IMG/VR virus record: IMGVR_UViG_3300016657_000126
Coordinates: 120,885-184,884 of that record
Reading direction: 5' to 3' (one strand)
Origin: a virus
DNA: 64,000 nt
Of this stretch, positions 3,310 to 15,943 are shown piece after piece. The position numbers and the translations under genes were made by a program. The notes under the pieces were generated by a model. It made no database searches and was not told where the DNA came from. It was given only the letters and a program-made list of their open reading frames with translations. How positions within the stretch are numbered: position 1 is the stretch's first letter; each line of letters begins with the position of its first letter.

Positions 3310-5445
3310 TCAGCGATTTCCCGCGCGCTTGAGCAATTCGCCCATGCGGTGGATCTGGTTGGTATCCAGAGACTGGCCAGTCTTCGCGGCCTGGTCATTG
3401 AACGCGAGCAGCTGCTGGAGTTCGCTGTTCTCCTCGGGGCTCAACGGAGCGCCAGTCGCGCCGGGAGCGATGGTGGCGTTCTGCTGGATGGGCGGCTGCT
3501 GTTGGGGCGCCTGCTGCACAGCGGGCTGGATGGTCTGCTGCTGGGCGCCCTGAGCTACCGCGGCGTAGCCGGGCATCGCGGTGATGGCGCTCCACGGGAG
3601 GCTGTTGTCGCTGGGGGCGAACACCGCCGCGGGGTTAGTGCGCGCGAAGTTAACCGCATCGGCGATGGTCATGGGCGTTTGCATGACCGCCCCGTTGACC
3701 GCGGCGTAGATCATCACCGCGGGCGGCTGCTGCACGGGCGGCTGCTGCACGGGCGGCTGCTGCACGGGCGGCTGGTAGGCCTGCTGGACCGGCGCCTGTT
3801 GGATGGGGGCCTGCTGCGCGGGGGCGCCGAAGCCAGCGGGAGCGCCGCCACCGAAGCCCGCGGGAGCTCCGCCACCGAAACCGGCAGGAGCACCGGCAGG
3901 AGCACCGAAGCCAGCGGGAGCACCGGCAGGAGCACCGCCGAAGCCGCCAGCGGGAGCGCCGCCACCGAAGCCCGCGGGAGCACCGGCAGGAGCACCGAAG
4001 CCAGCGGGAGCACCGGCAGGAGCACCGCCGAAGCCAGCAGGCGCGCCAGCGGGAGCGCCGCCGAAGCCGCCCGCGGGAGCTCCGCCACCGAAACCGGCAG
4101 GGGCACCGCCGCCGAAGCCAGCGGGAGCACCGGCAGGAGCACCGAAGCCAGCGGGAGCACCGCCACCGAAGCCCGCGGGAGCTCCGCCACCGAAACCGGC
4201 AGGGGCACCGCCGCCGAAGCCAGCAGGCGCGCCAGCGGGAGCGCCGCCGAAGCCGCCAGCGGGAGCGCCGCCACCGAAGCCCGCGGGAGCTCCGCCACCG
4301 AAGCCAGCGGGAGCGCCGGTGGGGGCACCACCGAAGCCGCCAGCGGGCGCACCGCCGAAGCCACCGACAGGAGCGGCGCCCGCGGGGGCACCAAAACCGG
4401 CGGGAGTGTTGCCAAAGCCGCCCGCGGCAGCGCCGACAGCGGCACCAGGAATAGCGCCAGGCGCGCCGGTCATGCCGGTGCCTCCGCGCACATTGGCGCG
4501 GTGGCCGCAGGCGATGTGGATCAGCTCAAGCGGAAAGGCGCCGTCGCCGACCAACATGTCGACGATTTCCTGATACGACGGGATGCGCCAGATATCGAGC
4601 GAGCCGAGGTCGTAGCGATTGGCAAGCGCCTCCGGACCGACGGGAAACACGCGCTCGGTGCCGAGACAATTCTCGCGCTCGGTGAAGTGGAAGCCGAGGT
4701 AGGGAAATCCTCCGCTGTTGGGCGCGGGCGGAACGATTTTGATGCAGGTGAGCAAGCCGGTGTTCGGGTGCGTCACGTCGCCGAGCAGGAACTGTTGGAA
4801 GTTCGGGTCGCGCGGCTGCTGACCGTAGGAGGTGGGCCAGCTGAGCGTCTCCTTCAGCGCACCGAGCGACTGCGCCGAAGTCACCAACAGACCCTGCGTG
4901 AGTTGACCCTTGATTTGGGCGACTGCGTTCATCGCCGCCTTGACCTTGGGACGGCCGGGAAGCGGAACGATCTCCTTACCCGGACGGCGGGGATCCGCCT
5001 GCTTTTTGGTGAGACCGGCGAAGCGCGCATCGAGGCGAGCGGTGCGGGCGAGGTCCATGACCGGGCAAGGAGCCTGATCGGCGGTGATGCCGGCGAGGGT
5101 GAGCTGCTTGGGCGAGGTGAAGCTCATGCCGGAACGGCCGAGCCACTGATAGACGTAGCCGAGCACGAACCAGGAGGTAAAGGCCGGCGTGCCACCTTTG
5201 ACCTCGTTGTCCACGCGCCCGCTGTGCATGTCGCGGTAGGGGGCGAACGAGGTTTTGCGCGCCGCGTCGTGCGGGCTCATGTTGTCGTCCAGCGCCGGAA
5301 GGATGCGCGCCCACATGGGCTCCTTCTCGGTGGGGAAGATGGCGCGAACACCATCCTTGAAATACCGACCGGACGAATCGAATTCGTCGTCGACGACAGC
5401 AGCGGAACCAGCGGCAATGCGGTTGTTATTGGGAGCAGTAGACAT
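3310..5445 (-). CDS. putative ssDNA-binding/recombination protein with FG/G-A-P repeat tail, Q-rich segments and GYF_2-like module
   Basis: Globular N-terminal ~320 aa (WARILPA, CPV, as in gp32-like SSBs), located between pol and recA. About 22 GFG repeats follow. SSB role is inferred. Confidence 0.55.
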   Translation of the reverse strand: MSTAPNNNRIAAGSAAVVDDEFDSSGRYFKDGVRAIFPTEKEPMWARILPALDDNMSPHDAARKTSFAPYRDMHSGRVDNEVKGGTPAFTSWFVLGYVYQWLGRSGMSFTSPKQLTLAGITADQAPCPVMDLARTARLDARFAGLTKKQADPRRPGKEIVPLPGRPKVKAAMNAVAQIKGQLTQGLLVTSAQSLGALKETLSWPTSYGQQPRDPNFQQFLLGDVTHPNTGLLTCIKIVPPAPNSGGFPYLGFHFTERENCLGTERVFPVGPEALANRYDLGSLDIWRIPSYQEIVDMLVGDGAFPLELIHIACGHRANVRGGTGMTGAPGAIPGAAVGAAAGGFGNTPAGFGAPAGAAPVGGFGGAPAGGFGGAPTGAPAGFGGGAPAGFGGGAPAGGFGGAPAGAPAGFGGGAPAGFGGGAPAGFGGGAPAGFGAPAGAPAGFGGGAPAGFGGGAPAGGFGGAPAGAPAGFGGAPAGAPAGFGAPAGAPAGFGGGAPAGGFGGAPAGAPAGFGAPAGAPAGFGGGAPAGFGGGAPAGFGAPAQQAPIQQAPVQQAYQPPVQQPPVQQPPVQQPPAVMIYAAVNGAVMQTPMTIADAVNFARTNPAAVFAPSDNSLPWSAITAMPGYAAVAQGAQQQTIQPAVQQAPQQQPPIQQNATIAPGATGAPLSPEENSELQQLLAFNDQAAKTGQSLDTNQIHRMGELLKRAGNR
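3822..4425. repeat. coding tandem repeats (GFGG(G)APA / GAPA)
   Basis: Recurrent units such as ccgaagccagcgggagc and caccggcaggag, all multiples of 3 nt. Confidence 0.9.
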
Positions 5446-5462
5446 GATGAGAAATTAAGATT

Positions 5463-5687
5463 TTAAGTGGGATTCTGACTTTTGCGTTCGGACAAAACCT
5501 GGCGCGCTTTTGTTAGGTTGGCGCGACCGGCCGTGATTTTTGCCTGCGAGCGAGAACGCCCGCCTTTGGCTCCGCTGAGACTCAGGAAATTGCGAGTTTC
5601 TTGGGACAGCTTTGGACCTGCCGACTTTTTCCCTGAACGAGAACGGTCGGCGGCGCTCTCGCGTTTACGGGTTTGAAGTTTAGCCAC
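5463..5687 (-). CDS. small basic, probably DNA-binding protein
   Basis: 74 aa, K/R-rich, motif SGAKGGRSRSQAKITAGRAN; GTG start. Confidence 0.55.
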   Translation of the reverse strand: MAKLQTRKRESAADRSRSGKKSAGPKLSQETRNFLSLSGAKGGRSRSQAKITAGRANLTKARQVLSERKSQNPT

Positions 5688-5700
5688 GCTGACGAGTTCA

Positions 5701-5731
5701 ACAAGCCGCTTGTTATAGTCAAGCGGCTTGT
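5701..5731. promoter_or_regulatory. perfect 12-bp inverted repeat overlapping the polymerase stop, containing TTGACT on -
   Basis: ACAAGCCGCTTG-ttatagt-CAAGCGGCTTGT. Confidence 0.5.
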
Positions 5732-8700
5732 CGGAATTCTTCCTTCAACCAGACCGGATCGTTCGCCCAAGTCGGGTCGTCGAGCAGCTTGAGCTGGTCC
5801 TTCGATGGGCGCGACGACCAGGCGAGATTGAACTCGCCGGACGCCGGATAGAACCAGACGCGCCCATGGTCGAACCACGTGTTCTTCTCCGTCATGTAGA
5901 TCTCGTGCAGCCTAGAGACAAGGAAGCGCTCCTCCACCGGGCAGATGGACACACACGAGTCGTAGAGGATGGTCATCAGCCTGGCGTGCATACCGCGCCG
6001 ACGATACTCGTCCACGAGGTTGATGCCGGCGCGCGCTGAAGTCGCAGCTACGGACTCTTGGCACGGGAAGTTGCGCGCCACGCGTCCCATCGCCGACAGC
6101 TGGGCGCGGCGATCGCGCCCGCTGATGGAACCACCGAGCATACCGTAACCGGCGAAGTGGCGCCGGCGACCAGACTGCGCGACGAGGAAACCCGGATGCT
6201 CAGGCGCGCGCTGCAGATCCTCTTCCAGCCATCGAGTAGCCACCGGCTCGCGCTTTGCGATCGCGCCGAGGATCTTCGAGCCGGTGCCCTCCGGCGGCTT
6301 GAATCCGGCGTCGGACTCGATCTTGCGCTCAAGGGTGGAGTCTACCGCGCCATAGGCGGTGTTGGAGACCAGCACGCCGTTCGCGGTGAAGCGATGCCGC
6401 GGACCGGCGTTCACCAGATCGTAGACCGGCTCCAACGTGAGCTCGAACCCACGGGCACGGAGCTCCGCGATCAGGACATCGCGGGGACGACCTCGGTAGC
6501 CGTTGACGCCGAGTATCGCCGCAGGATTTCCTCCAGCGGCGTTCCCTTGTCGAACAACGCCCTTGCATGCGACGCCGAGCACTGGATTTCCGGGTGGGTG
6601 GCCATGAACTCGCGAACTATTTTGGAGACGTTCGGGCGCGATGCCTTGGTCCTCGCGATTTCGGCGATTTCCGCCGCAGTCTTTCCCTGCTTCAGGAGCT
6701 TGACCAGATAGTTGAACGAGAGAGCCGAGTGCGCAGCGTGCAGACGCCTGGCCTCCGCGTAAGTGTTCTCGGCTTCCGGATTCGCCGACGACTTCTTCCA
6801 CTGAGCCAGGATTTGAGCTTCGGTCCAGCCCCTCCAGACAAGCTTGCGCACCTGAGCCCGAGCGAACCCCACCTCCGGATGCGCCGCCAAGAATGCGTCC
6901 GCCTTCGCGAAATCCGAATTCGCCCGTAGCTGCTCCTTGGTGCGATACTCCCCGGCATTCCACTTCTCCACCAGCTGCTCCTCCGTCAGACCGGAGAAGA
7001 GCAGATTGCGGACTGTCCTGAACGCCAGCTTCACCTCCGGATGCGCCGCAACGAACGCTCGCGTCTTCGCTCCAAATGATCGGATCGAAAGACGCGTGTT
7101 CTCGAGATTGGTCCGACGGTCCACCAGGCGAAGATTGTCCGGCGAGTAAGGGCCGTCGTTGTCGATCCGATCGAAATCCTTCCCCTTGAAGGTCTCGCCC
7201 GGCCACTTGCTGAGCGCCCACGAGATGAAGTGCTCCTTGTCCTGAAACAGCACCTGGATTCCCCGCCCCTTGTAGTTGTAGGAGCTGGCGTGCGTCCACG
7301 TGTTGCAACGCTGCTTCATGGACTGAAACCGCGTGCGAAGCCGATAGCGAATTTCGTCCTTCTTCGGCGCCTGACACGCACAACGAATGCCTTTGCCAGA
7401 TTCCAGATGGTGTAGCCATTTCTGACGCACCACCTCGCAGCGCGGGCAAAATGTCTGCACCGCCAGATTGCCTTTGCTGTTTCGAAACAGCGCCGGCCTC
7501 AGTTGCAAACCCTGCAAGCCGAGCTTGGCCAGCCTCGCTGCCAGTTCGGGCGAGATCGAGACCTGCCAAAGCAGCTTCTCCGAAGAAGACCTCTCTTCCG
7601 TCCATAAGCCAGACACCGTGGTCGACGGTGGCACGGAGTCCTTGGTATTCGATGATGTGCTGTTCACCTTTGCAGATAAGCCCTTCGTGGCGGACCCAGT
7701 CAACTCCGTCCCACAAAAGATCGAAATCTTTAGATACTTCCTTGATTTTCTTTACACCATTGTTTGTTAATACTCCCACATCAGCCGGCAAGCAACTGAA
7801 GTTTCCCACCTTTCCAATGCCGTCGCGGTCCTTCTTCTTGTTGAGATACTCGCGGGGCTTTTCCTGCACCCATTCCGCCAGCGACCAGTGAAGGTCGTGC
7901 TTGGGGTGGCGCAGCTTTCCGTCTTTGCGCAAGAGCTCGTGTTCCTCGACTTTGCGGATCACCTTGCCCTCCTTCATGAGGTGCATGATGGCCTGCGGGT
8001 TTCGATTACCCTCGGGGATGCCGCAGTCAGCGTCGTAACGCAGGCGAACCGGCATCGTCTCCGTCCCTTCCTTAACGAGACCAAACTGAGTGTCCGGCTC
8101 GGTCATGAGCCGGATCAGATTCTCGTCGCCGCTCATGAACGCCTTACCGCGGATCTCGGCCGTGTCATAGTCATACTCGACGATGCACCAGCCCTTCGAT
8201 CCGGGCACTGGAGGAAGGCTGCTGATGTCGACGCACCCGCGGATGGACGGGATGTTCTTACCCACCTTCTCCACGCGGTCGTCGAGTTTCGGATACTGCA
8301 TCGCGCCGACCAGATATTTCTCGAACTTCTCGGGCAGACGGTTGGCTTCCTTCAGTTCGAGCAGCAGCTTTCCGACGCCCTCCGATATGCGCTTGTTGAC
8401 GTAGCTCGGCCAGTTAAGCGTATTCGGTTTCCAGCTACGAGGACGCCCGGTGTCGGTCGTGCTATACTGACAGTGCACGCGTTGATCGCTGCACAGCCAG
8501 AAGTGAAGACCGTTCTCCTTGGTCACCTCGCCTGTCTCTTCGTCGATTTCGGGCTCCTTCAGGAACGCCTTGCTCAGGTTACCGACGGCATTGAGGTTCA
8601 GCAGCTCTCCGATCGTCTCGTGCTTGTCCGCGAGAATCTGCAGCGTCTGCTTGTCGGTGGACGGCGTGAACTCCTTCTGCCTAGCCGGGGTCATGGCCAT

Positions 8701-10452
8701 GACCTTCTCCCACGAAGTTGTCGGCAGGCCCTTCTCTTTGTTGTTGGTCGATTTCACCGGAGTGAGGCCGATCACGTCAAAGAGCCAGCGCCGCATCATC
8801 GGAGCGCTTCGGATGTTGAACCCCGGTGCCTCGCGCATGTGGTGGAAGAACGCCAGCGCCTGGTCCTTCTTTTCAGGCCCGACCAGGTCCAGCAACTTCC
8901 GCTCGGCCTCACCGTGCTTCAGCGCCTCAGGGCTGGTCAGCAGCTGGAGACACTCCAGACCGACGGTGAGCCCACGCATGCCGAACGCCCCCTGCAGGAA
9001 GCGGAGAAACAGCGTGCGCGCCTCGTTCGCCACCCGCTGCTTAAATCGGATGTTCAGCTCCTGCGTGGCGAACGTAAACAGATCACGCAGCTCGTCCATG
9101 CGCTGCACGTTCATCGGAAGTCCGACGATCGCGAAGTTGGTGAACACGTCGCTCACGAACGGGAGGAACGTGTTCATGAAGTAGGCCGCGGTGCCTTCGG
9201 CGACCATCCTGCGCAGCAAATACGGCCATGCGCGGTAAGGCGTCAGCACGTCGTAGCAGCCGTAGGGCTCAATCAGTTTGTCGGGCACGTAACCGAAGCC
9301 GTCGTCCTCGCTCTGGCGGTTAGCCTTATACCAGAGCATCAGCTCGATGTCGTAGCGACCAAACGGCGTGTAGCGGATAGACAACTCTTCCAAACCGCCG
9401 CCGACGTCTTCGTCGACTACCTGCTGACCGAACTCAGTGTCGAACTCCGTGCGTTGATACCACTCCAGATCCAGGAATTTATCCATCCACGGGTAGTCCG
9501 CGGAGATGTGATGACCTAGATAGCGCGTCTGCTTTTTATTCAACACGCGGCCGAGAATTTGTCCGCAAGTCTTGTAAGGCGCGTTCATCACATACTCCGC
9601 GCGCTCATTCATGAACTGAAAGAAGAACGCGCGCGTCGGTGTAGGCGCGGCTTGGAAACTCCTCAGAAGACCATCCACGTGACTGCGGCCTTTCCACTCA
9701 CAGTCCACGGAGAACAGGCTGTATTTCTTTTCCTCCCACTCACGCACAACATTCTCCATCTGCTCCGTGTTGCGCACGAAGGTCATCTCGGAGGGAATCA
9801 CGTCAACGACCACGCCGTTGATTTGATCCCACATCCGTTTCACCTGCTTCATGTCCACATTGAAGCGCTCGATATACTCCGGCTTGAACACCGGCAGCAT
9901 GATGTCGGGCATCAGGTAGACGCGCGCGTTGACTAGCGCCGAGTGAAACCAACCACCCTGCAAATCGCTGATCGACCCCTTCACATCCACCAACACATCG
10001 AACGCCGGCTTTCCAAGGCAGACGATGATCTTCGGCTGGACGCGCTTTATCTCGGCGAGCAACGCCGGGGTTGCCATAGCGATGGCGTCGCGGTCGGGCT
10101 TCTTGCGCTCTTCCTTTGGGAGGAGCCACTTCACCAGGGCCGTGAAGTAGCAGTCGTCCATGTCGATCGCCGCGTTGCGCGCGCAGTCGGTGAGAATGAC
10201 GCCAGACCCACTCTTCAGATAGCGCGGCTTGTCCTCGATGGAAGCTCCGGTGAACGTGCGCTCCCGGTCCATCGCCTCGTCCTCCTGCAGCGACGTCTGG
10301 ATGAACATCACGTCGCTCGGCGTCTTTCCCGCCCCGGCGACAAACAAGACGTCCGACCAGCGGCGCGTGGTCTTTACGTCATGCGGATGTTCCGTGGGTC
10401 TCGGTGTAGCCAAAGCCACCCGAGGTTTGAATGAGCGGCGTTCTTCAAACAT
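5719..10452 (-). CDS. polA: family A DNA polymerase with N-terminal uracil-DNA-glycosylase-like domain (SPO1-type), 3'-5' exonuclease and an intein
   Basis: UDG-like YFTALVKW..EIKRVQPKIIVCLG; exonuclease SVDCEW/HHISAD/YGCYD; TDTGRPRSWKPN; motif A DYDTAEIR; motif B KVGNFS|TAYG split by intein; NFPCQ; motif C LYDS. Confidence 0.93.
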   Translation of the reverse strand: MFEERRSFKPRVALATPRPTEHPHDVKTTRRWSDVLFVAGAGKTPSDVMFIQTSLQEDEAMDRERTFTGASIEDKPRYLKSGSGVILTDCARNAAIDMDDCYFTALVKWLLPKEERKKPDRDAIAMATPALLAEIKRVQPKIIVCLGKPAFDVLVDVKGSISDLQGGWFHSALVNARVYLMPDIMLPVFKPEYIERFNVDMKQVKRMWDQINGVVVDVIPSEMTFVRNTEQMENVVREWEEKKYSLFSVDCEWKGRSHVDGLLRSFQAAPTPTRAFFFQFMNERAEYVMNAPYKTCGQILGRVLNKKQTRYLGHHISADYPWMDKFLDLEWYQRTEFDTEFGQQVVDEDVGGGLEELSIRYTPFGRYDIELMLWYKANRQSEDDGFGYVPDKLIEPYGCYDVLTPYRAWPYLLRRMVAEGTAAYFMNTFLPFVSDVFTNFAIVGLPMNVQRMDELRDLFTFATQELNIRFKQRVANEARTLFLRFLQGAFGMRGLTVGLECLQLLTSPEALKHGEAERKLLDLVGPEKKDQALAFFHHMREAPGFNIRSAPMMRRWLFDVIGLTPVKSTNNKEKGLPTTSWEKVMAMTPARQKEFTPSTDKQTLQILADKHETIGELLNLNAVGNLSKAFLKEPEIDEETGEVTKENGLHFWLCSDQRVHCQYSTTDTGRPRSWKPNTLNWPSYVNKRISEGVGKLLLELKEANRLPEKFEKYLVGAMQYPKLDDRVEKVGKNIPSIRGCVDISSLPPVPGSKGWCIVEYDYDTAEIRGKAFMSGDENLIRLMTEPDTQFGLVKEGTETMPVRLRYDADCGIPEGNRNPQAIMHLMKEGKVIRKVEEHELLRKDGKLRHPKHDLHWSLAEWVQEKPREYLNKKKDRDGIGKVGNFSCLPADVGVLTNNGVKKIKEVSKDFDLLWDGVDWVRHEGLICKGEQHIIEYQGLRATVDHGVWLMDGREVFFGEAALAGLDLARTGSEAGQARLAGFATEAGAVSKQQRQSGGADILPALRGGASEMATPSGIWQRHSLCVSGAEEGRNSLSASHAVSVHEAALQHVDARQLLQLQGAGNPGAVSGQGALHLVGAQQVAGRDLQGEGFRSDRQRRPLLAGQSSPGGPSDQSREHASFDPIIWSEDASVRCGASGGEAGVQDSPQSALLRSDGGAAGGEVECRGVSHQGAATGEFGFREGGRILGGASGGGVRSGSGAQACLEGLDRSSNPGSVEEVVGESGSREHLRGGQASARCALGSLVQLSGQAPEAGKDCGGNRRNREDQGIAPERLQNSSRVHGHPPGNPVLGVACKGVVRQGNAAGGNPAAILGVNGYRGRPRDVLIAELRARGFELTLEPVYDLVNAGPRHRFTANGVLVSNTAYGAVDSTLERKIESDAGFKPPEGTGSKILGAIAKREPVATRWLEEDLQRAPEHPGFLVAQSGRRRHFAGYGMLGGSISGRDRRAQLSAMGRVARNFPCQESVAATSARAGINLVDEYRRRGMHARLMTILYDSCVSICPVEERFLVSRLHEIYMTEKNTWFDHGRVWFYPASGEFNLAWSSRPSKDQLKLLDDPTWANDPVWLKEEFRQAA
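6361..7794 (-). mobile_element. intein (478 aa) in polymerase motif B
   Basis: Starts CLPADVGVLT, block B ATVDHGV, ends VYDLVNAGPRHRFTANGVLVSN followed by Thr(+1). Removal restores KVGNFSTAYG. Confidence 0.92.
6471..7703 (-). CDS. HNH homing endonuclease nested out-of-frame inside the intein
   Basis: CPRC..CAC, MKQRC, YKGRGI, DRIDNDGPYSPDNLRLV...N, then four HTH-like repeats (AHPE..G.T.E). +1 frame relative to polA; start codon uncertain (TTG). Confidence 0.85.
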   Translation of the reverse strand: MTGSATKGLSAKVNSTSSNTKDSVPPSTTVSGLWTEERSSSEKLLWQVSISPELAARLAKLGLQGLQLRPALFRNSKGNLAVQTFCPRCEVVRQKWLHHLESGKGIRCACQAPKKDEIRYRLRTRFQSMKQRCNTWTHASSYNYKGRGIQVLFQDKEHFISWALSKWPGETFKGKDFDRIDNDGPYSPDNLRLVDRRTNLENTRLSIRSFGAKTRAFVAAHPEVKLAFRTVRNLLFSGLTEEQLVEKWNAGEYRTKEQLRANSDFAKADAFLAAHPEVGFARAQVRKLVWRGWTEAQILAQWKKSSANPEAENTYAEARRLHAAHSALSFNYLVKLLKQGKTAAEIAEIARTKASRPNVSKIVREFMATHPEIQCSASHARALFDKGTPLEEILRRYSASTATEVVPAMS

Positions 10453-10670: not shown

Positions 10671-11897
10671 TTATTGGATACCGAGGGCAAGATAACGAAG
10701 ATAGGCGATCTCGTTTTTGTCGCACTCGCCCAAGTCCTTTCGATGGGCGGGAGGACGCAGAGAGCGTGTTGCGATGAAGGTGACTGTCTGGCGGAAGTAG
10801 TCTTCGGCGTCGGCACCGCCGGCGTCGTTGTCCATGATCGATACGGCTTCTTGAGCACCCGCCGCTATCAGGCGCGCCTGCTCCGGGCTGACGAACTTAC
10901 CAGTGGCGCCGACCGCCGGCGGTCCGAATTTGGCGGCGTCTAGCGGACCTTCGGTGAGGACAATGCGCCGCACCCAACCAGGGTGACGCGCCGCCATCAT
11001 GTCGTTCCAGCGGAGCGCGGCGTCGTAGCAGAACAGCACTTCGTTGCGCGACATGGCGTCGGCCGAGCGATAGCGGGTTATCCGCTTCCAATCATCTCCA
11101 TAGTCGGGGCGGATTACTTTCGTTTTGTCGGGCCCGGCGTATTCGACAGGCACCCATTCGTGGCGGTAAGGATGCAGGAAGTAGGTGTAGCCCTGGTGCG
11201 CCTGTTGGAGAATACGCGCCTGCCATCCGATGCAGCTACCATGCTGACGCCCGAAAAGAATGAGGCGATTCTGAGGCGTGTCTTTCCATCCATCGGGTCC
11301 CTTGCGGTAGTAGCGCTTCAGCGTGCCCTCGGGTAGTTCGACGTGGCAAAACGAGGCCTCGAGCATGTCGTGCAGGACCGCCAGATCGTAGCCACGATCG
11401 ACAACATACCGGACAGCCGGATGGTCGGCGGGGAGGTCCTTCAAGAAGGTGCACTGTCCGGGCTCGCCGGGAACGCGGCGACCGAGGTGATCGGTGACCA
11501 GCTTCAGCTCGTTGTCGACGGCCGTCACCGACACGACGGACTGCGCGTCCGGAATGCCGCGGCTCTGAATCGGTGGGTAATCCAGGATATCGAGCATCGA
11601 GATCTTTTTACCCGACTTCATACACATGGCGCAGTCGTCGTTATCGTAACTTCCGAGGCGCCCCTCCCACTTGCCGGTGCCGAAATACTTGTCCAAGTTC
11701 ACAGCCCCGTGCATGGAGATGAGTTCCTTGCGCCCGTCCAGCTGCAGACGAAGCGGACTCGGGAAGTAGGCGTGGAGACCGCCAGTTTCCTGGCGTATGC
11801 TCACAGGTCCGTGAATGCGTGAAAGCGCTTCAACGAAACGCAACACCTTTGGGTCGAGCGCAGAGACGCCGGATCCGTATTTGATCGAGACGCTCAT
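10671..11897 (-). CDS. dnaG: DnaG-type (TOPRIM) DNA primase
   Basis: YVVDRG, NRLILF, IGWQARI, LTEGPLDA, MDNDAGG, KDLGE. Confidence 0.88.
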   Translation of the reverse strand: MSVSIKYGSGVSALDPKVLRFVEALSRIHGPVSIRQETGGLHAYFPSPLRLQLDGRKELISMHGAVNLDKYFGTGKWEGRLGSYDNDDCAMCMKSGKKISMLDILDYPPIQSRGIPDAQSVVSVTAVDNELKLVTDHLGRRVPGEPGQCTFLKDLPADHPAVRYVVDRGYDLAVLHDMLEASFCHVELPEGTLKRYYRKGPDGWKDTPQNRLILFGRQHGSCIGWQARILQQAHQGYTYFLHPYRHEWVPVEYAGPDKTKVIRPDYGDDWKRITRYRSADAMSRNEVLFCYDAALRWNDMMAARHPGWVRRIVLTEGPLDAAKFGPPAVGATGKFVSPEQARLIAAGAQEAVSIMDNDAGGADAEDYFRQTVTFIATRSLRPPAHRKDLGECDKNEIAYLRYLALGIQ

Positions 11898-13633
11898 AGA
11901 TCGAGGATGGCGAAGTTTTTGATGGCGAGAGAATGAATTTCAGAGGCCAGATCGTCGTCCGGCATCGGGAGGTCCAGTTGACGTTTGTGCGGCAGGCAGA
12001 GCAGCAGGCGAATCTCGCGCTCGACGCGCGCCGGCTGGAAGTCGGACGGCTCCGGAATCGGGCCGTGAAGGCGCAGCTGGTTGATCGACACGCGGCGGGC
12101 CAACGCGGCCTCGTGCTCAAGCATGGAGTCGAACTCCGCCCGAATTTCGAGCAGGGTGCTCTTCACGCCGGCGACGAGAGACTGGATCGTGAGACCTCCG
12201 GTCAATGTCCAGAAAAGCTGAGGCGAGATCTGACGACCCAACAGGATCAGTGCGCGCCAGAGGTAGGAGTTGCGAAACACCTCGTCGTGGTAGGTGGACG
12301 CATTCGAGGAGAGGAAGCGCGTCACCGCGGCAAGATCCGTCATACCGAGCTCCCAGCCAGGAGCCGAGTGTTGAATCGAAGAACCGAGCCCGACGATCGT
12401 CTGGGTCAGAGACCAGGCGTTAACCGTATTCATTTCCTCGTTACGGAATATGAAAGCGGGCGCGGGGAATGACGCGCGGTCGACGGACGGAGCGAACAGC
12501 CCTTGGCAGAACAGGTCCTCGAAGGACGCGGAGAGACCGGCCATGTATTCCTGCTTCGGACGGTAGTTCACAGCGGTCCACGCATCGATGGCGGCGGATG
12601 ATGCGCGGCCGAAGGCTTCACGCCCGGCGAAAGTCTCCTCCGTCAAAGGGAACTCTTCACGGGAAGCCAGCGCCACGAGCAGCTGAGCCAGGGGGAGGTC
12701 GAGCTGGCGATCGGCAATCAGGCCGCGGATGCGGCGAGCGGTCAGCGACTGCCAAGACTCCACCGGACCAAGCCGGGTAGCGAGGACTTCCACGATCGCG
12801 GGCGCCGAGGGGTGACACGCCAGCAACCGACCAACGCGACTCCCTTTCGCCACGGAACCGGGGAGAGTCGCATTTTCCGAGGGCCGGGAGGGCTCGGATT
12901 CCGATGCTGTGTTCTGGTCCCCTTTCGCCTGCGAAAGGGTAAGGGTTAGATGATTGGGTTCGGAAGAACCCAATCCAATACGGTTGGCGTTTTCGCCTAC
13001 CCCGGTAGTCAAAAAATTAGCGGGAGTTGCGAGCTTCGATTCGGTGCGTTTGACCTGTGGGAGAAGGTCACGCGCGCTGAAGTAGGCCTCGAGATCCAAC
13101 CAGAACCCGGCGGCGTCGAGATCAGTGTCGACCGGAGCGCTCATTCCAACCCCCATCAGGAAACGCGCTGCCTCATTCGCGCTGGAGGCGTAGAGCATGT
13201 CCTGCACGCACAGGAACAGCCAGAGGCGTTCGGCGAGCTCGGTGAGATCGAATTCCTCCTTCGAGAACCAGGGAAGGACTTGCCCGCGGGCGTCATCGAG
13301 CGCCGCGGCGAAACCAACCGAGAACTTTGGTCCGTGCGTGAGCAGCCAGCGCGCCGAACCTTTGTTCGCCTGGCGCTTGAGCCCGTGTTCAGCATGCAGC
13401 GCCATAACCGCTCCGCAGCGGATCAGACTGCGCACGTGGCGGGAGGCTGTGCCGGCCGTGACCAGAGCGCCCTCTGCCAGCCTCGCGTTACTGAGCGTCG
13501 TCTTGCCGTGAATGTCGGCGAGATGATTGATCTGCGCGTAGACCGGGAAGAACGTCTTTCGCATGCCCGGAAACGACTTAACGTAATTCGAAAAACGCCC
13601 GGCGCGGGGCGCACGGAAGAAGATCCGAGCCAT
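11894..13633 (-). CDS. putative replication initiator (N-terminal winged HTH)
   Basis: LSNARLAEGALVTAGTASRHVRSLIRCGAV HTH; S/P-rich central linker; sits between DnaB and primase. Function inferred. Confidence 0.5.
   Translation of the reverse strand: MARIFFRAPRAGRFSNYVKSFPGMRKTFFPVYAQINHLADIHGKTTLSNARLAEGALVTAGTASRHVRSLIRCGAVMALHAEHGLKRQANKGSARWLLTHGPKFSVGFAAALDDARGQVLPWFSKEEFDLTELAERLWLFLCVQDMLYASSANEAARFLMGVGMSAPVDTDLDAAGFWLDLEAYFSARDLLPQVKRTESKLATPANFLTTGVGENANRIGLGSSEPNHLTLTLSQAKGDQNTASESEPSRPSENATLPGSVAKGSRVGRLLACHPSAPAIVEVLATRLGPVESWQSLTARRIRGLIADRQLDLPLAQLLVALASREEFPLTEETFAGREAFGRASSAAIDAWTAVNYRPKQEYMAGLSASFEDLFCQGLFAPSVDRASFPAPAFIFRNEEMNTVNAWSLTQTIVGLGSSIQHSAPGWELGMTDLAAVTRFLSSNASTYHDEVFRNSYLWRALILLGRQISPQLFWTLTGGLTIQSLVAGVKSTLLEIRAEFDSMLEHEAALARRVSINQLRLHGPIPEPSDFQPARVEREIRLLLCLPHKRQLDLPMPDDDLASEIHSLAIKNFAILDL
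12842..12998. repeat. cluster of inverted and direct repeats in the linker of the initiator-like gene (candidate origin)
   Basis: CCCTTTCGC-ct-GCGAAAGGG (12920-12939); GATTGGGTTC-ggaa-GAACCCAATC (12952-12975); TTTCGCC at 12845, 12923 and 12991. Confidence 0.4.
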
Positions 13634-13720
13634 GAGAATTCCTTGAAGGGTTTAAGTGGGTGAGCACCTTGAGGGTGCTCGGGGAAGAACCAACAAGCCC
13701 CTGTGGGGAGACTTGGTCAA
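13634..13720 (-). promoter_or_regulatory. promoter/leader of initiator-like gene with hairpin, RBS and predicted sRNA target
   Basis: TTGACC at 13720-13715; hairpin GAGCACC-ctcaa-GGTGCTC; CCCACTTAAACCCTTCAAGGAATT (includes AAGGA) just before the ATG. Confidence 0.55.
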
Positions 13721-15239: not shown

Positions 15240-15943
15240 AGTTCACCTCCGGTGTTAAGCCAGGTCCACAATGCGCTCACATCTTTTCCCATTTTGATCA
15301 GAGCCATACCCAACGTCTGATCCTCCAAAAGCGCCTGCTTAATTTCGTAGCCAAATTTTTTTCGTATTTCAGGGGTTAGGCCGCCCAGAATAGGGCGGCA
15401 GATCGGGGTCATCACGATAGACTGAACTGCCACAGCCTCCACGAAACCCGGGTCGTTGATGGTTACGTTGCGCGCTCGGAATATCTCGAACTGAGCTTCG
15501 CGAAGGTCATCTTTGATGTCTCCAATCCGGACGGCGATGATGTCGTCCAGGGTTTTTGGATCAACCGCCGTCGGATTCAGCTTCGCGGTGTGGATTGCTG
15601 TCGTCGCAGTTCCAGTGACCACAGACACCGCTATTCCCCGCGCGTTCTTCTCGTCGACGTAGCGTTTCACCCAGCCGGCCGACGCGCTACCCCCGAGCAT
15701 GTTCACGAAAGGTCCCTCGGCCATGCGACAGGCGGAGAAGCAGGCCTTGACGTAGACGTCTGCCGTCACCCCCATGCTGTGGGCTTGCGCGGCAGCCAAC
15801 GCGAAGAAGTTTCCGCCGGAGTCGCGCGACCTGGGTTTGTAGGGCTTGCGCATGCGATCGCTCTTCGCGGCCGCGTAGGCTTTTCGTATCTCACGTTCCA
15901 GCTGCGAAAGCTGCGCAAGCCGGAGGTCTTCGTTTACAGACAT
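15236..15943 (-). CDS. hypothetical protein (replication cluster)
   Basis: 235 aa ORF coupled to dnaB. Confidence 0.65.
   Translation of the reverse strand: MSVNEDLRLAQLSQLEREIRKAYAAAKSDRMRKPYKPRSRDSGGNFFALAAAQAHSMGVTADVYVKACFSACRMAEGPFVNMLGGSASAGWVKRYVDEKNARGIAVSVVTGTATTAIHTAKLNPTAVDPKTLDDIIAVRIGDIKDDLREAQFEIFRARNVTINDPGFVEAVAVQSIVMTPICRPILGGLTPEIRKKFGYEIKQALLEDQTLGMALIKMGKDVSALWTWLNTGGEL

Follow-up and report, generated by a model that had tools for sequence, protein, structure and literature searches.

The 15-nt block in front of the gp32-like SSB gene and a similar block in front of gene X are each complementary at 14 of 15 positions to one intergenic hairpin locus of the same phage, and this match exceeds chance. 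We see about an even chance that the locus encodes a lineage-specific antisense RNA acting in trans, with gene X as its main target and SSB as a weaker second target reached in the same pairing mode. The window, the whole 64,000-nt stretch of DNA that was analysed, is part of a 196,897-nt phage genome with 62% GC.

The minus strand carries a replication module in the order sbcC, a 158-aa gene, SF2 helicase, a 235-aa gene, DnaB-like helicase, gene X, primase, family A polymerase, a 711-aa gene (SSB) and UvsX-like recombinase. The two genes concerned are:

11894..13633, minus strand: gene X, 579 aa, with an N-terminal HTH; flanked by the DnaB-like helicase and the primase.
3310..5445, minus strand: gp32-like SSB gene, 711 aa, with an N-terminal core of ~320 aa and a long Gly/Ala/Pro/Phe tail; the start is backed by alignment.

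Gene X resembles the HTH_36/DnaD_N clusters of the Atlas (0.94-0.95), and we infer its role as that of a probable replication initiator; the HTH_36 cut-off is passed by its positional homolog in the related phage L026, and the signal is weak in other homologs. The earlier note had called the 711-aa protein SSB-like, and structure searches agree. The top four Foldseek matches are RB69/T4 gp32, with modest E values of 0.017-0.29; in VIA-align, too, RB69 and T4 gp32 come out on top, with modest Z scores of 6.6 and 6.4 (184-190 aligned, rmsd 4.6-5.2), and the Atlas features of the protein point to gp32 clusters. Its Gly/Ala/Pro/Phe repeat tail (window 3310-4450, minus strand) is 120 aa shorter in the other assembly, L004. 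The polymerase (window 5719-10452, minus strand) has an N-terminal UDG domain and a ~480-aa insertion missing in most relatives, and the SF2 helicase (window 15934-18252, minus strand) gives a weak Hint match at an insertion. The insertions in these two proteins are likely inteins.

The sites in the two leaders are:

5457..5471, minus strand: 15-nt SSB-leader site at -26 to -12 that includes UUAAA; 14 of its 15 positions are complementary to the 3' arm of the candidate RNA.
5452..5456, minus strand: AATTT at -11 to -7, formally complementary to the 5' end of the RNA; unpaired in the best predicted hybrid.
13637..13660, minus strand: X leader, the putative primary target, at -27 to -4; complementary to the RNA in its 3' arm (14/15) and its 5' arm (6 bp).

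On the minus strand the SSB leader reads as the earlier note had described it, with the 15-nt block at 5471-5457, AATTT at 5456-5452, ctcatc at 5451-5446 and the ATG at 5445. The same holds for the RNA locus on the plus strand, where the block at 18740-18754 is followed by a hairpin at 18755-18775, tgg at 18776-18778 and AATTT at 18779-18783. The 14/15 match claimed between them is correct; its mismatch lies at position 11, with A opposite G and no wobble, and the mismatch of the X leader is non-wobble as well. The common 10-mer does end 16 nt (SSB) or 17 nt (gene X, ATG 13633) 5' of the start codon. The full-genome search that the earlier note had proposed (both strands of the 196,897 nt, at most one mismatch) finds three copies of this 10-mer: at 5471 (minus strand) before the SSB gene, at 13660 (minus strand) before gene X and at 18740 (plus strand), inverted in an intergenic hairpin cluster.

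Chance expectation was derived from Markov models of orders 0-3 trained on the phage's own start regions. Under these models, 2-3.5e-4 matches of at least 14/15 are expected among the 213 start regions, and 18740 is the sole intergenic 15-mer that is antisense at this level to two of them. When G-U pairs are permitted, the joint score of the RNA locus, 25.5, is the top of the genome (runner-up 21). Matches of 14/15 to a single target are common, occurring at about nine other intergenic places, and joint scores of 23-24.5 arise in ~206 kb of foreign DNA, one of them, 24.5, being nearly equal to that of the locus. These background values, and the absence of RNA and motif from every relative examined, would suit a non-functional relic or coincidence, in which an inverted duplication of the X leader joined a terminator cluster and SSB is matched by accident. 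We consider such an origin very unlikely: a second 14/15 match is expected at ~3e-4, the one found lies at an equal distance from the ATG in a gene of the same pathway, and the RNA has an ordered layout of promoter, hairpin, linker and terminator.

The AATTT next to the SSB site was dropped as extra support. The word AATT is self-complementary and lies within 20 nt of the start in 18 of 213 genes, and no 7-mer is more enriched than AATTTCT ahead of the operon heads of this phage; such words being common in its leaders, the five nucleotides add little. A similar word also stands in the SSB leader of the relative L020, which has no such RNA.

The RNA locus sits between sbcC and the 158-aa gene and comprises:

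18706..18783, minus strand: candidate small RNA of ~78 nt, consisting of hairpin H2 with a weak lower stem, a short linker, a GNRA-capped terminator hairpin and a U tract.
18755..18775, minus strand: upper H2 hairpin, 9 bp, closed in both predicted hybrids.
18740..18754, minus strand: antisense segment common to both targets, made of the 3' strand of the H2 lower stem and the linker.
18714..18739, minus strand: terminator-like hairpin with a perfect 11-bp stem and a GCAA loop, then a U-rich tail.
18792..18819, minus strand: TTGACG (18819-18814) overlapping hairpin H1; TTGACG lies 35-36 nt before the first base of the RNA, and H1 is likely the sbcC terminator.
Two similar elements lie upstream of the target sites:

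13715..13720, minus strand: TTGACC, putative -35 of the X transcript.
5718..5722, minus strand: TTGAC, putative -35 of the SSB transcript.

The minus-strand fold of the RNA region has a z of -5.3. Over the 78 nt, the minus strand folds at -43.7 kcal/mol with seven G-U pairs, versus -33.4 kcal/mol with one on the plus strand, and the stable strand is the one antisense to both leaders. The TTGAC element, the terminator-like hairpin and the strand-specific G-U pairs suggest that a ~78-nt RNA is probably made from the minus strand; from the sequence we infer its promoter, its ends, its expression, its pairing in vivo and the direction of its effect. Since no good -10 hexamer is visible, the promoter is a putative one. 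TTGAC recurs at a conserved spacing: at the 158-aa gene, both in the window and in four relatives, it precedes the start by 35-39 nt, and at the RNA locus, as well as in the L008, L020 and L026 X leaders, it precedes a hairpin base by 35-36 nt. On the minus strand, 5 of 63 TTGAC lie 35-43 nt before a start, where 0.6 are expected. This spacing suggests a transcript from ~18783 to the terminator at 18739-18706. TTGAC also stands upstream of both target sites, which would thus fall in 5' UTRs. The locus has the trait of a trans-encoded small RNA, with targets 5.1 and 13.3 kb away and short, imperfect complementarity near both start codons. No Rfam family matches the locus near its gathering score. 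Imperfect 15-nt direct repeats with CCACTTTT flank the candidate RNA (window 18799-18785 and 18704-18690, minus strand); both could also pair with its linker, and they are possibly a duplicated promoter region.

We ranked all 213 start regions by their predicted hybrids with the 78-nt RNA (mean -3.3, sd 1.85 kcal/mol). Gene X ranks first at -13.8 kcal/mol and SSB second at -8.4, with ranks 3 and 4 nearly equal to SSB (-8.2 and -8.1). The SSB hybrid is thus 5 kcal/mol weaker than that of X; SSB takes rank 3 with an 80-nt version of the RNA and falls to rank 24 (or 13) when the RNA is extended with the upstream H1 sequence. Hairpin H1 has further apparent targets, but these matches are rich in GC and G-U, lie outside the inferred RNA and were discarded. 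For gene X, the form with the hairpin intact (14+6 bp) is predicted at -15.3 kcal/mol versus -3.8 for a three-block open form. The SSB hybrid is predicted at -11.8 kcal/mol with just the 14 bp; the five extra pairs of the earlier note are absent from the best structure, and forcing them costs 3.3 kcal/mol (-8.5). In the best hybrids of both targets the weak lower H2 stem is opened and the upper hairpin stays closed, which indicates one pairing mode for both. Thus, the proposal that one RNA recognises two replication genes is sustained to the extent that SSB is the second-best predicted partner among 213, while the two different pairing modes attached to it are not borne out.

The motif lies at a constant distance from the ATG (-26 and -27), and its distance from the putative promoters varies (~+215 vs +25), so action on RNA fits better than a DNA operator. 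A DNA element is nevertheless to be weighed: the HTH protein X could bind the motif as its operator, or a phage RNA polymerase or sigma factor could read it as a promoter element, with the third copy just inverted and no RNA-RNA pairing. The phage does code for an RNA polymerase beta subunit and a sigma-70-like factor (G000:75193-75405 of the phage genome), the three full copies all sit in intergenic DNA ahead of replication genes, neither mismatch can form a wobble, and CCCACTT occurs 26-31 nt before four operon-head genes (P ~1e-3 for any position in -45..-1). We still find this account quite improbable. The copies have no common -35 and number only three in full; a TATAT-class promoter lies ~75 nt upstream of one of the four CCCACTT genes and places the word in its UTR; and, besides the link to the ATG, a DNA element leaves unexplained two further colinear X-matching blocks split by a self-pairing stem, the G-U pairs confined to the minus strand and the terminator. 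The recognisable promoter-like class of this phage, TGCAAC/TGCACG-N17/18-TATAT (window 60887 and 27905, minus strand, plus four sites beyond the window), differs from the shared motif. At G000:95564 (minus strand), the fourth CCCACTT immediately follows a hairpin and stands 30 nt ahead of the first gene of the RNA polymerase subunit cluster, which codes for 280 aa; the RNA is predicted to bind poorly there (rank 151).

A stronger competitor concerns the SSB site itself, which overlaps the UUAAA/UUAA words of an operator-like layout:

5492..5525, minus strand: predicted H-type pseudoknot of 5+6 Watson-Crick bp at -80 to -47, upstream of the 15-nt site.

In T4 and RB69, gp32 is an autogenous translational repressor whose operator consists of a pseudoknot and, after it, UUAAA/UUAA words in an unstructured stretch (PMC535899). 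The leader studied here resembles this gene 32 operator in its gp32-like protein, its predicted upstream pseudoknot and its UUAAA/UUAA at a comparable distance from the AUG (PMC535899); unlike it, the leader has just two such words and no Shine-Dalgarno sequence. It is therefore conceivable that the RNA is real and regulates gene X only, that at the SSB site a protein binds an RNA operator of the gene 32 type, that the SSB protein or another factor reads CCCAC-UUAAA in both leaders, and that the RNA-SSB match follows from the match to X. This we hold to be unlikely, though it has substantial points in its favour. A pseudoknot of this length (11 bp) is found in only 6 of 213 leaders, and the SSB leader alone among the 213 has two TTAA within -45..-1; the SSB leader of L020 has two TTAA as well, despite missing the RNA; and the weaker SSB hybrid fits too. 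On the other side, CCCAC before UUAAA is unexplained unless a common protein site is assumed, and the two leaders are nearer to the RNA (14/15 each) than to each other (13/15), which is weak evidence. A strict search finds no pseudoknot in the SSB leaders of L020, L009 and L010. By eye alone, a hairpin with a GCCCC loop and a downstream GGGGC, its stem bases changed, is seen in the sister SSB leaders L008:19470-19530 and L078:415-465, a possible conserved pseudoknot that the strict search missed. The operator is also compatible with RNA pairing, not exclusive of it: both types of control could coexist at SSB. The T4/RB69 operator paper reports no antisense RNA against the operator (PMC535899).

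The trans antisense RNA, our preferred reading, would be confined to one lineage. About 14 related phages have the same gene order, the two closest (DnaB 55% and 44%) and ~12 distant ones, and the conservation check raised in the earlier note turned out negative, RNA and motif being in none of them. The gap between sbcC and the 158-aa gene is below 50 nt in most relatives; the closest (DnaB 55%) has a 93-nt gap with other hairpins and no complement to its own X leader. The single other assembly is identical at all three sites. Three relatives, L020, L008 and L010, carry within the X leader a stretch of 12-16 nt complementary to the X start region, a result reached by 0 of 300 shuffles in each case, so that pairing at the X start recurs in the family, but in cis. 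The complements lie in long X-leader hairpins at L020:11563-11700 (16 nt), L008:11446-11600 (12 nt) and L010:9870-10000 (15 nt); those of L020 and L008 begin ~36 nt after TTGAC. The word CGACAAGGC occurs at L008:11545 and L020 ~11641, in the 3' arm of the X-leader hairpin, and also in the L008 SSB leader at 19409. No segment antisense to a relative's own SSB start rises above background, and SSB as a second target therefore has no comparative support.

Several apparent parallels were set aside. In L008, a word common to the X and SSB leaders and a coding hairpin complementary to both reach a joint score of 23.5, equal to the foreign-DNA background, and half of the word is lost in the sister leader L078. 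The hairpin, L008:3476-3502, is a perfect 8-bp one in the 5' coding region of sbcD, with loop and 5' arm complementary to the X/SSB leaders at that background score. In L009, the X and SSB intergenic regions, separated by 6.7 kb, could form 14 bp including one G-U (11510-11523 with 18210-18223), which was discounted at p ~0.035. The 33 matches of an IMG/VR motif search all lie in AT-rich contigs without this phage's replication module and were taken as chance; a 19-mer search of genome_contigs gave a single match. Searches for closer relatives brought none beyond L017/L035 and L020, and no cultured phage matched. No RNA run is among the sequencing runs listed as containing the phage. Soil sequencing runs contain close-strain fragments, one of which spans the X leader, with nothing usable at the three sites among the variants listed.

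We propose a mechanistic model in which a separately transcribed ~78-nt minus-strand RNA would act in trans on two replication mRNAs by a single mechanism. Its partly exposed linker would nucleate on CCCACUU of the target. The weak lower H2 stem would then be displaced, giving ~14 bp at -26/-27 to -12/-13 with the upper hairpin still folded. At gene X, the freed 5' arm of the RNA would add 6 bp over -9 to -4, making this the strong, primary interaction; at SSB, the 14 bp would form alone, a weaker and secondary one. Since the majority of leaders in this phage have no Shine-Dalgarno sequence, covering the A/U-rich stretch most likely lowers translation of both genes. If an operator of the gene 32 type coexists at SSB, the effect of the RNA there could go in either direction.

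Just downstream of the candidate RNA lies a further gene of the module:

18195..18671, minus strand: minimal RAMP (Cas7/Vipr-like) gene, 158 aa.

The top structural matches of this protein are CRISPR RAMPs (Z 10.9, rmsd 2.9, 148 aligned; Foldseek E 7e-6). TTGACC stands 35 nt before its ATG, and its transcript is probably leaderless. A minimal phage RAMP gene beside a small non-coding RNA recalls VIPR (bioRxiv 10.64898/2026.04.26.720920). By the definition of that paper, VIPR identity is ruled out: no tract of 9-16 GGY/NN repeats is found at the RNA locus or at the relatives' loci, and in the relatives examined the RAMP gene is kept between sbcC and the SF2 helicase without the RNA and with neither a CRISPR nor a vrRNA array. 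The best period-5 scores of the genome are 5/8, at two places, both far from the RAMP gene. Self-targets are seen here, whereas the VIPR paper found none for vrRNAs. We treat the RAMP gene as a neighbour of the RNA only. It is tempting to speculate that a phage with its own RNA polymerase moved the relatives' cis start-pairing X-leader hairpin into a trans RNA, which co-regulates X and SSB inside the autoregulatory operator of SSB and is possibly carried by the array-less Cas7/Vipr-like RAMP; this full scenario is decidedly improbable.

Of the phage small RNAs compared here, C4 and sar target adjacent immunity genes, P4 CI its own transcript and PreS host genes. If our model is true, a known mechanism would be put to a new use, with a trans RNA tuning two distant replisome genes of the phage that encodes it, and regulation would have shifted from cis, as in the relatives' X leaders, to trans. 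Its reach is that of a candidate RNA in one lineage with no cultured relative found.

Among plasmid systems, ColIb-P9 Inc RNA/I-complex RNAI and R1 CopA likewise control initiator translation by RNA pairing (PMC10724649). The X leaders of the relatives, where the tip of a hairpin is complementary to the X start region, bring to mind the repZ pseudoknot switch (PMC10724649), a resemblance only. The plasmid RNAs are cis-encoded and fully complementary (PMC10724649), unlike the candidate RNA, which would be trans-encoded and partly complementary, with a candidate second target. A cis-encoded antisense RNA of the plasmid type is ruled out, because the RNA and the X mRNA would be read from one and the same strand, at loci 5 kb apart, and complementarity is partial.

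Closer parallels come from phages. Like the C4 RNA of P1/P7 (RF01695; PMC5320573, PMC12197685), the candidate is a phage RNA of ~77-78 nt directed at phage mRNA, with two separate antisense elements, one over the ribosome-binding region and the other upstream. A cmscan of 18600-18900 against all Rfam families (E up to 10) gives no C4 match, and a genome-wide RF01695 search gives none either, its controls being equally silent. Unlike C4, the candidate has two stem-loops in its predicted fold instead of three, and its antisense elements flank a hairpin (lower stem and linker) instead of lying in loops as a' and b'. It would have its own promoter and terminator, whereas C4 arises by RNase P processing, and its targets would be replication genes 5 and 13 kb away, whereas that of C4 is the adjacent antirepressor operon. 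With P4 CI RNA it would share the use of one small RNA with two pairing sites to limit phage replication genes (PMC4825925). CI, however, is processed from the transcript that it controls and causes premature termination at seqA/seqC (PMC4825925), while here both sites are translation-start regions of distant genes. Together, these comparisons suggest that the candidate RNA would work like C4 or P4 CI but most likely belongs to neither family.
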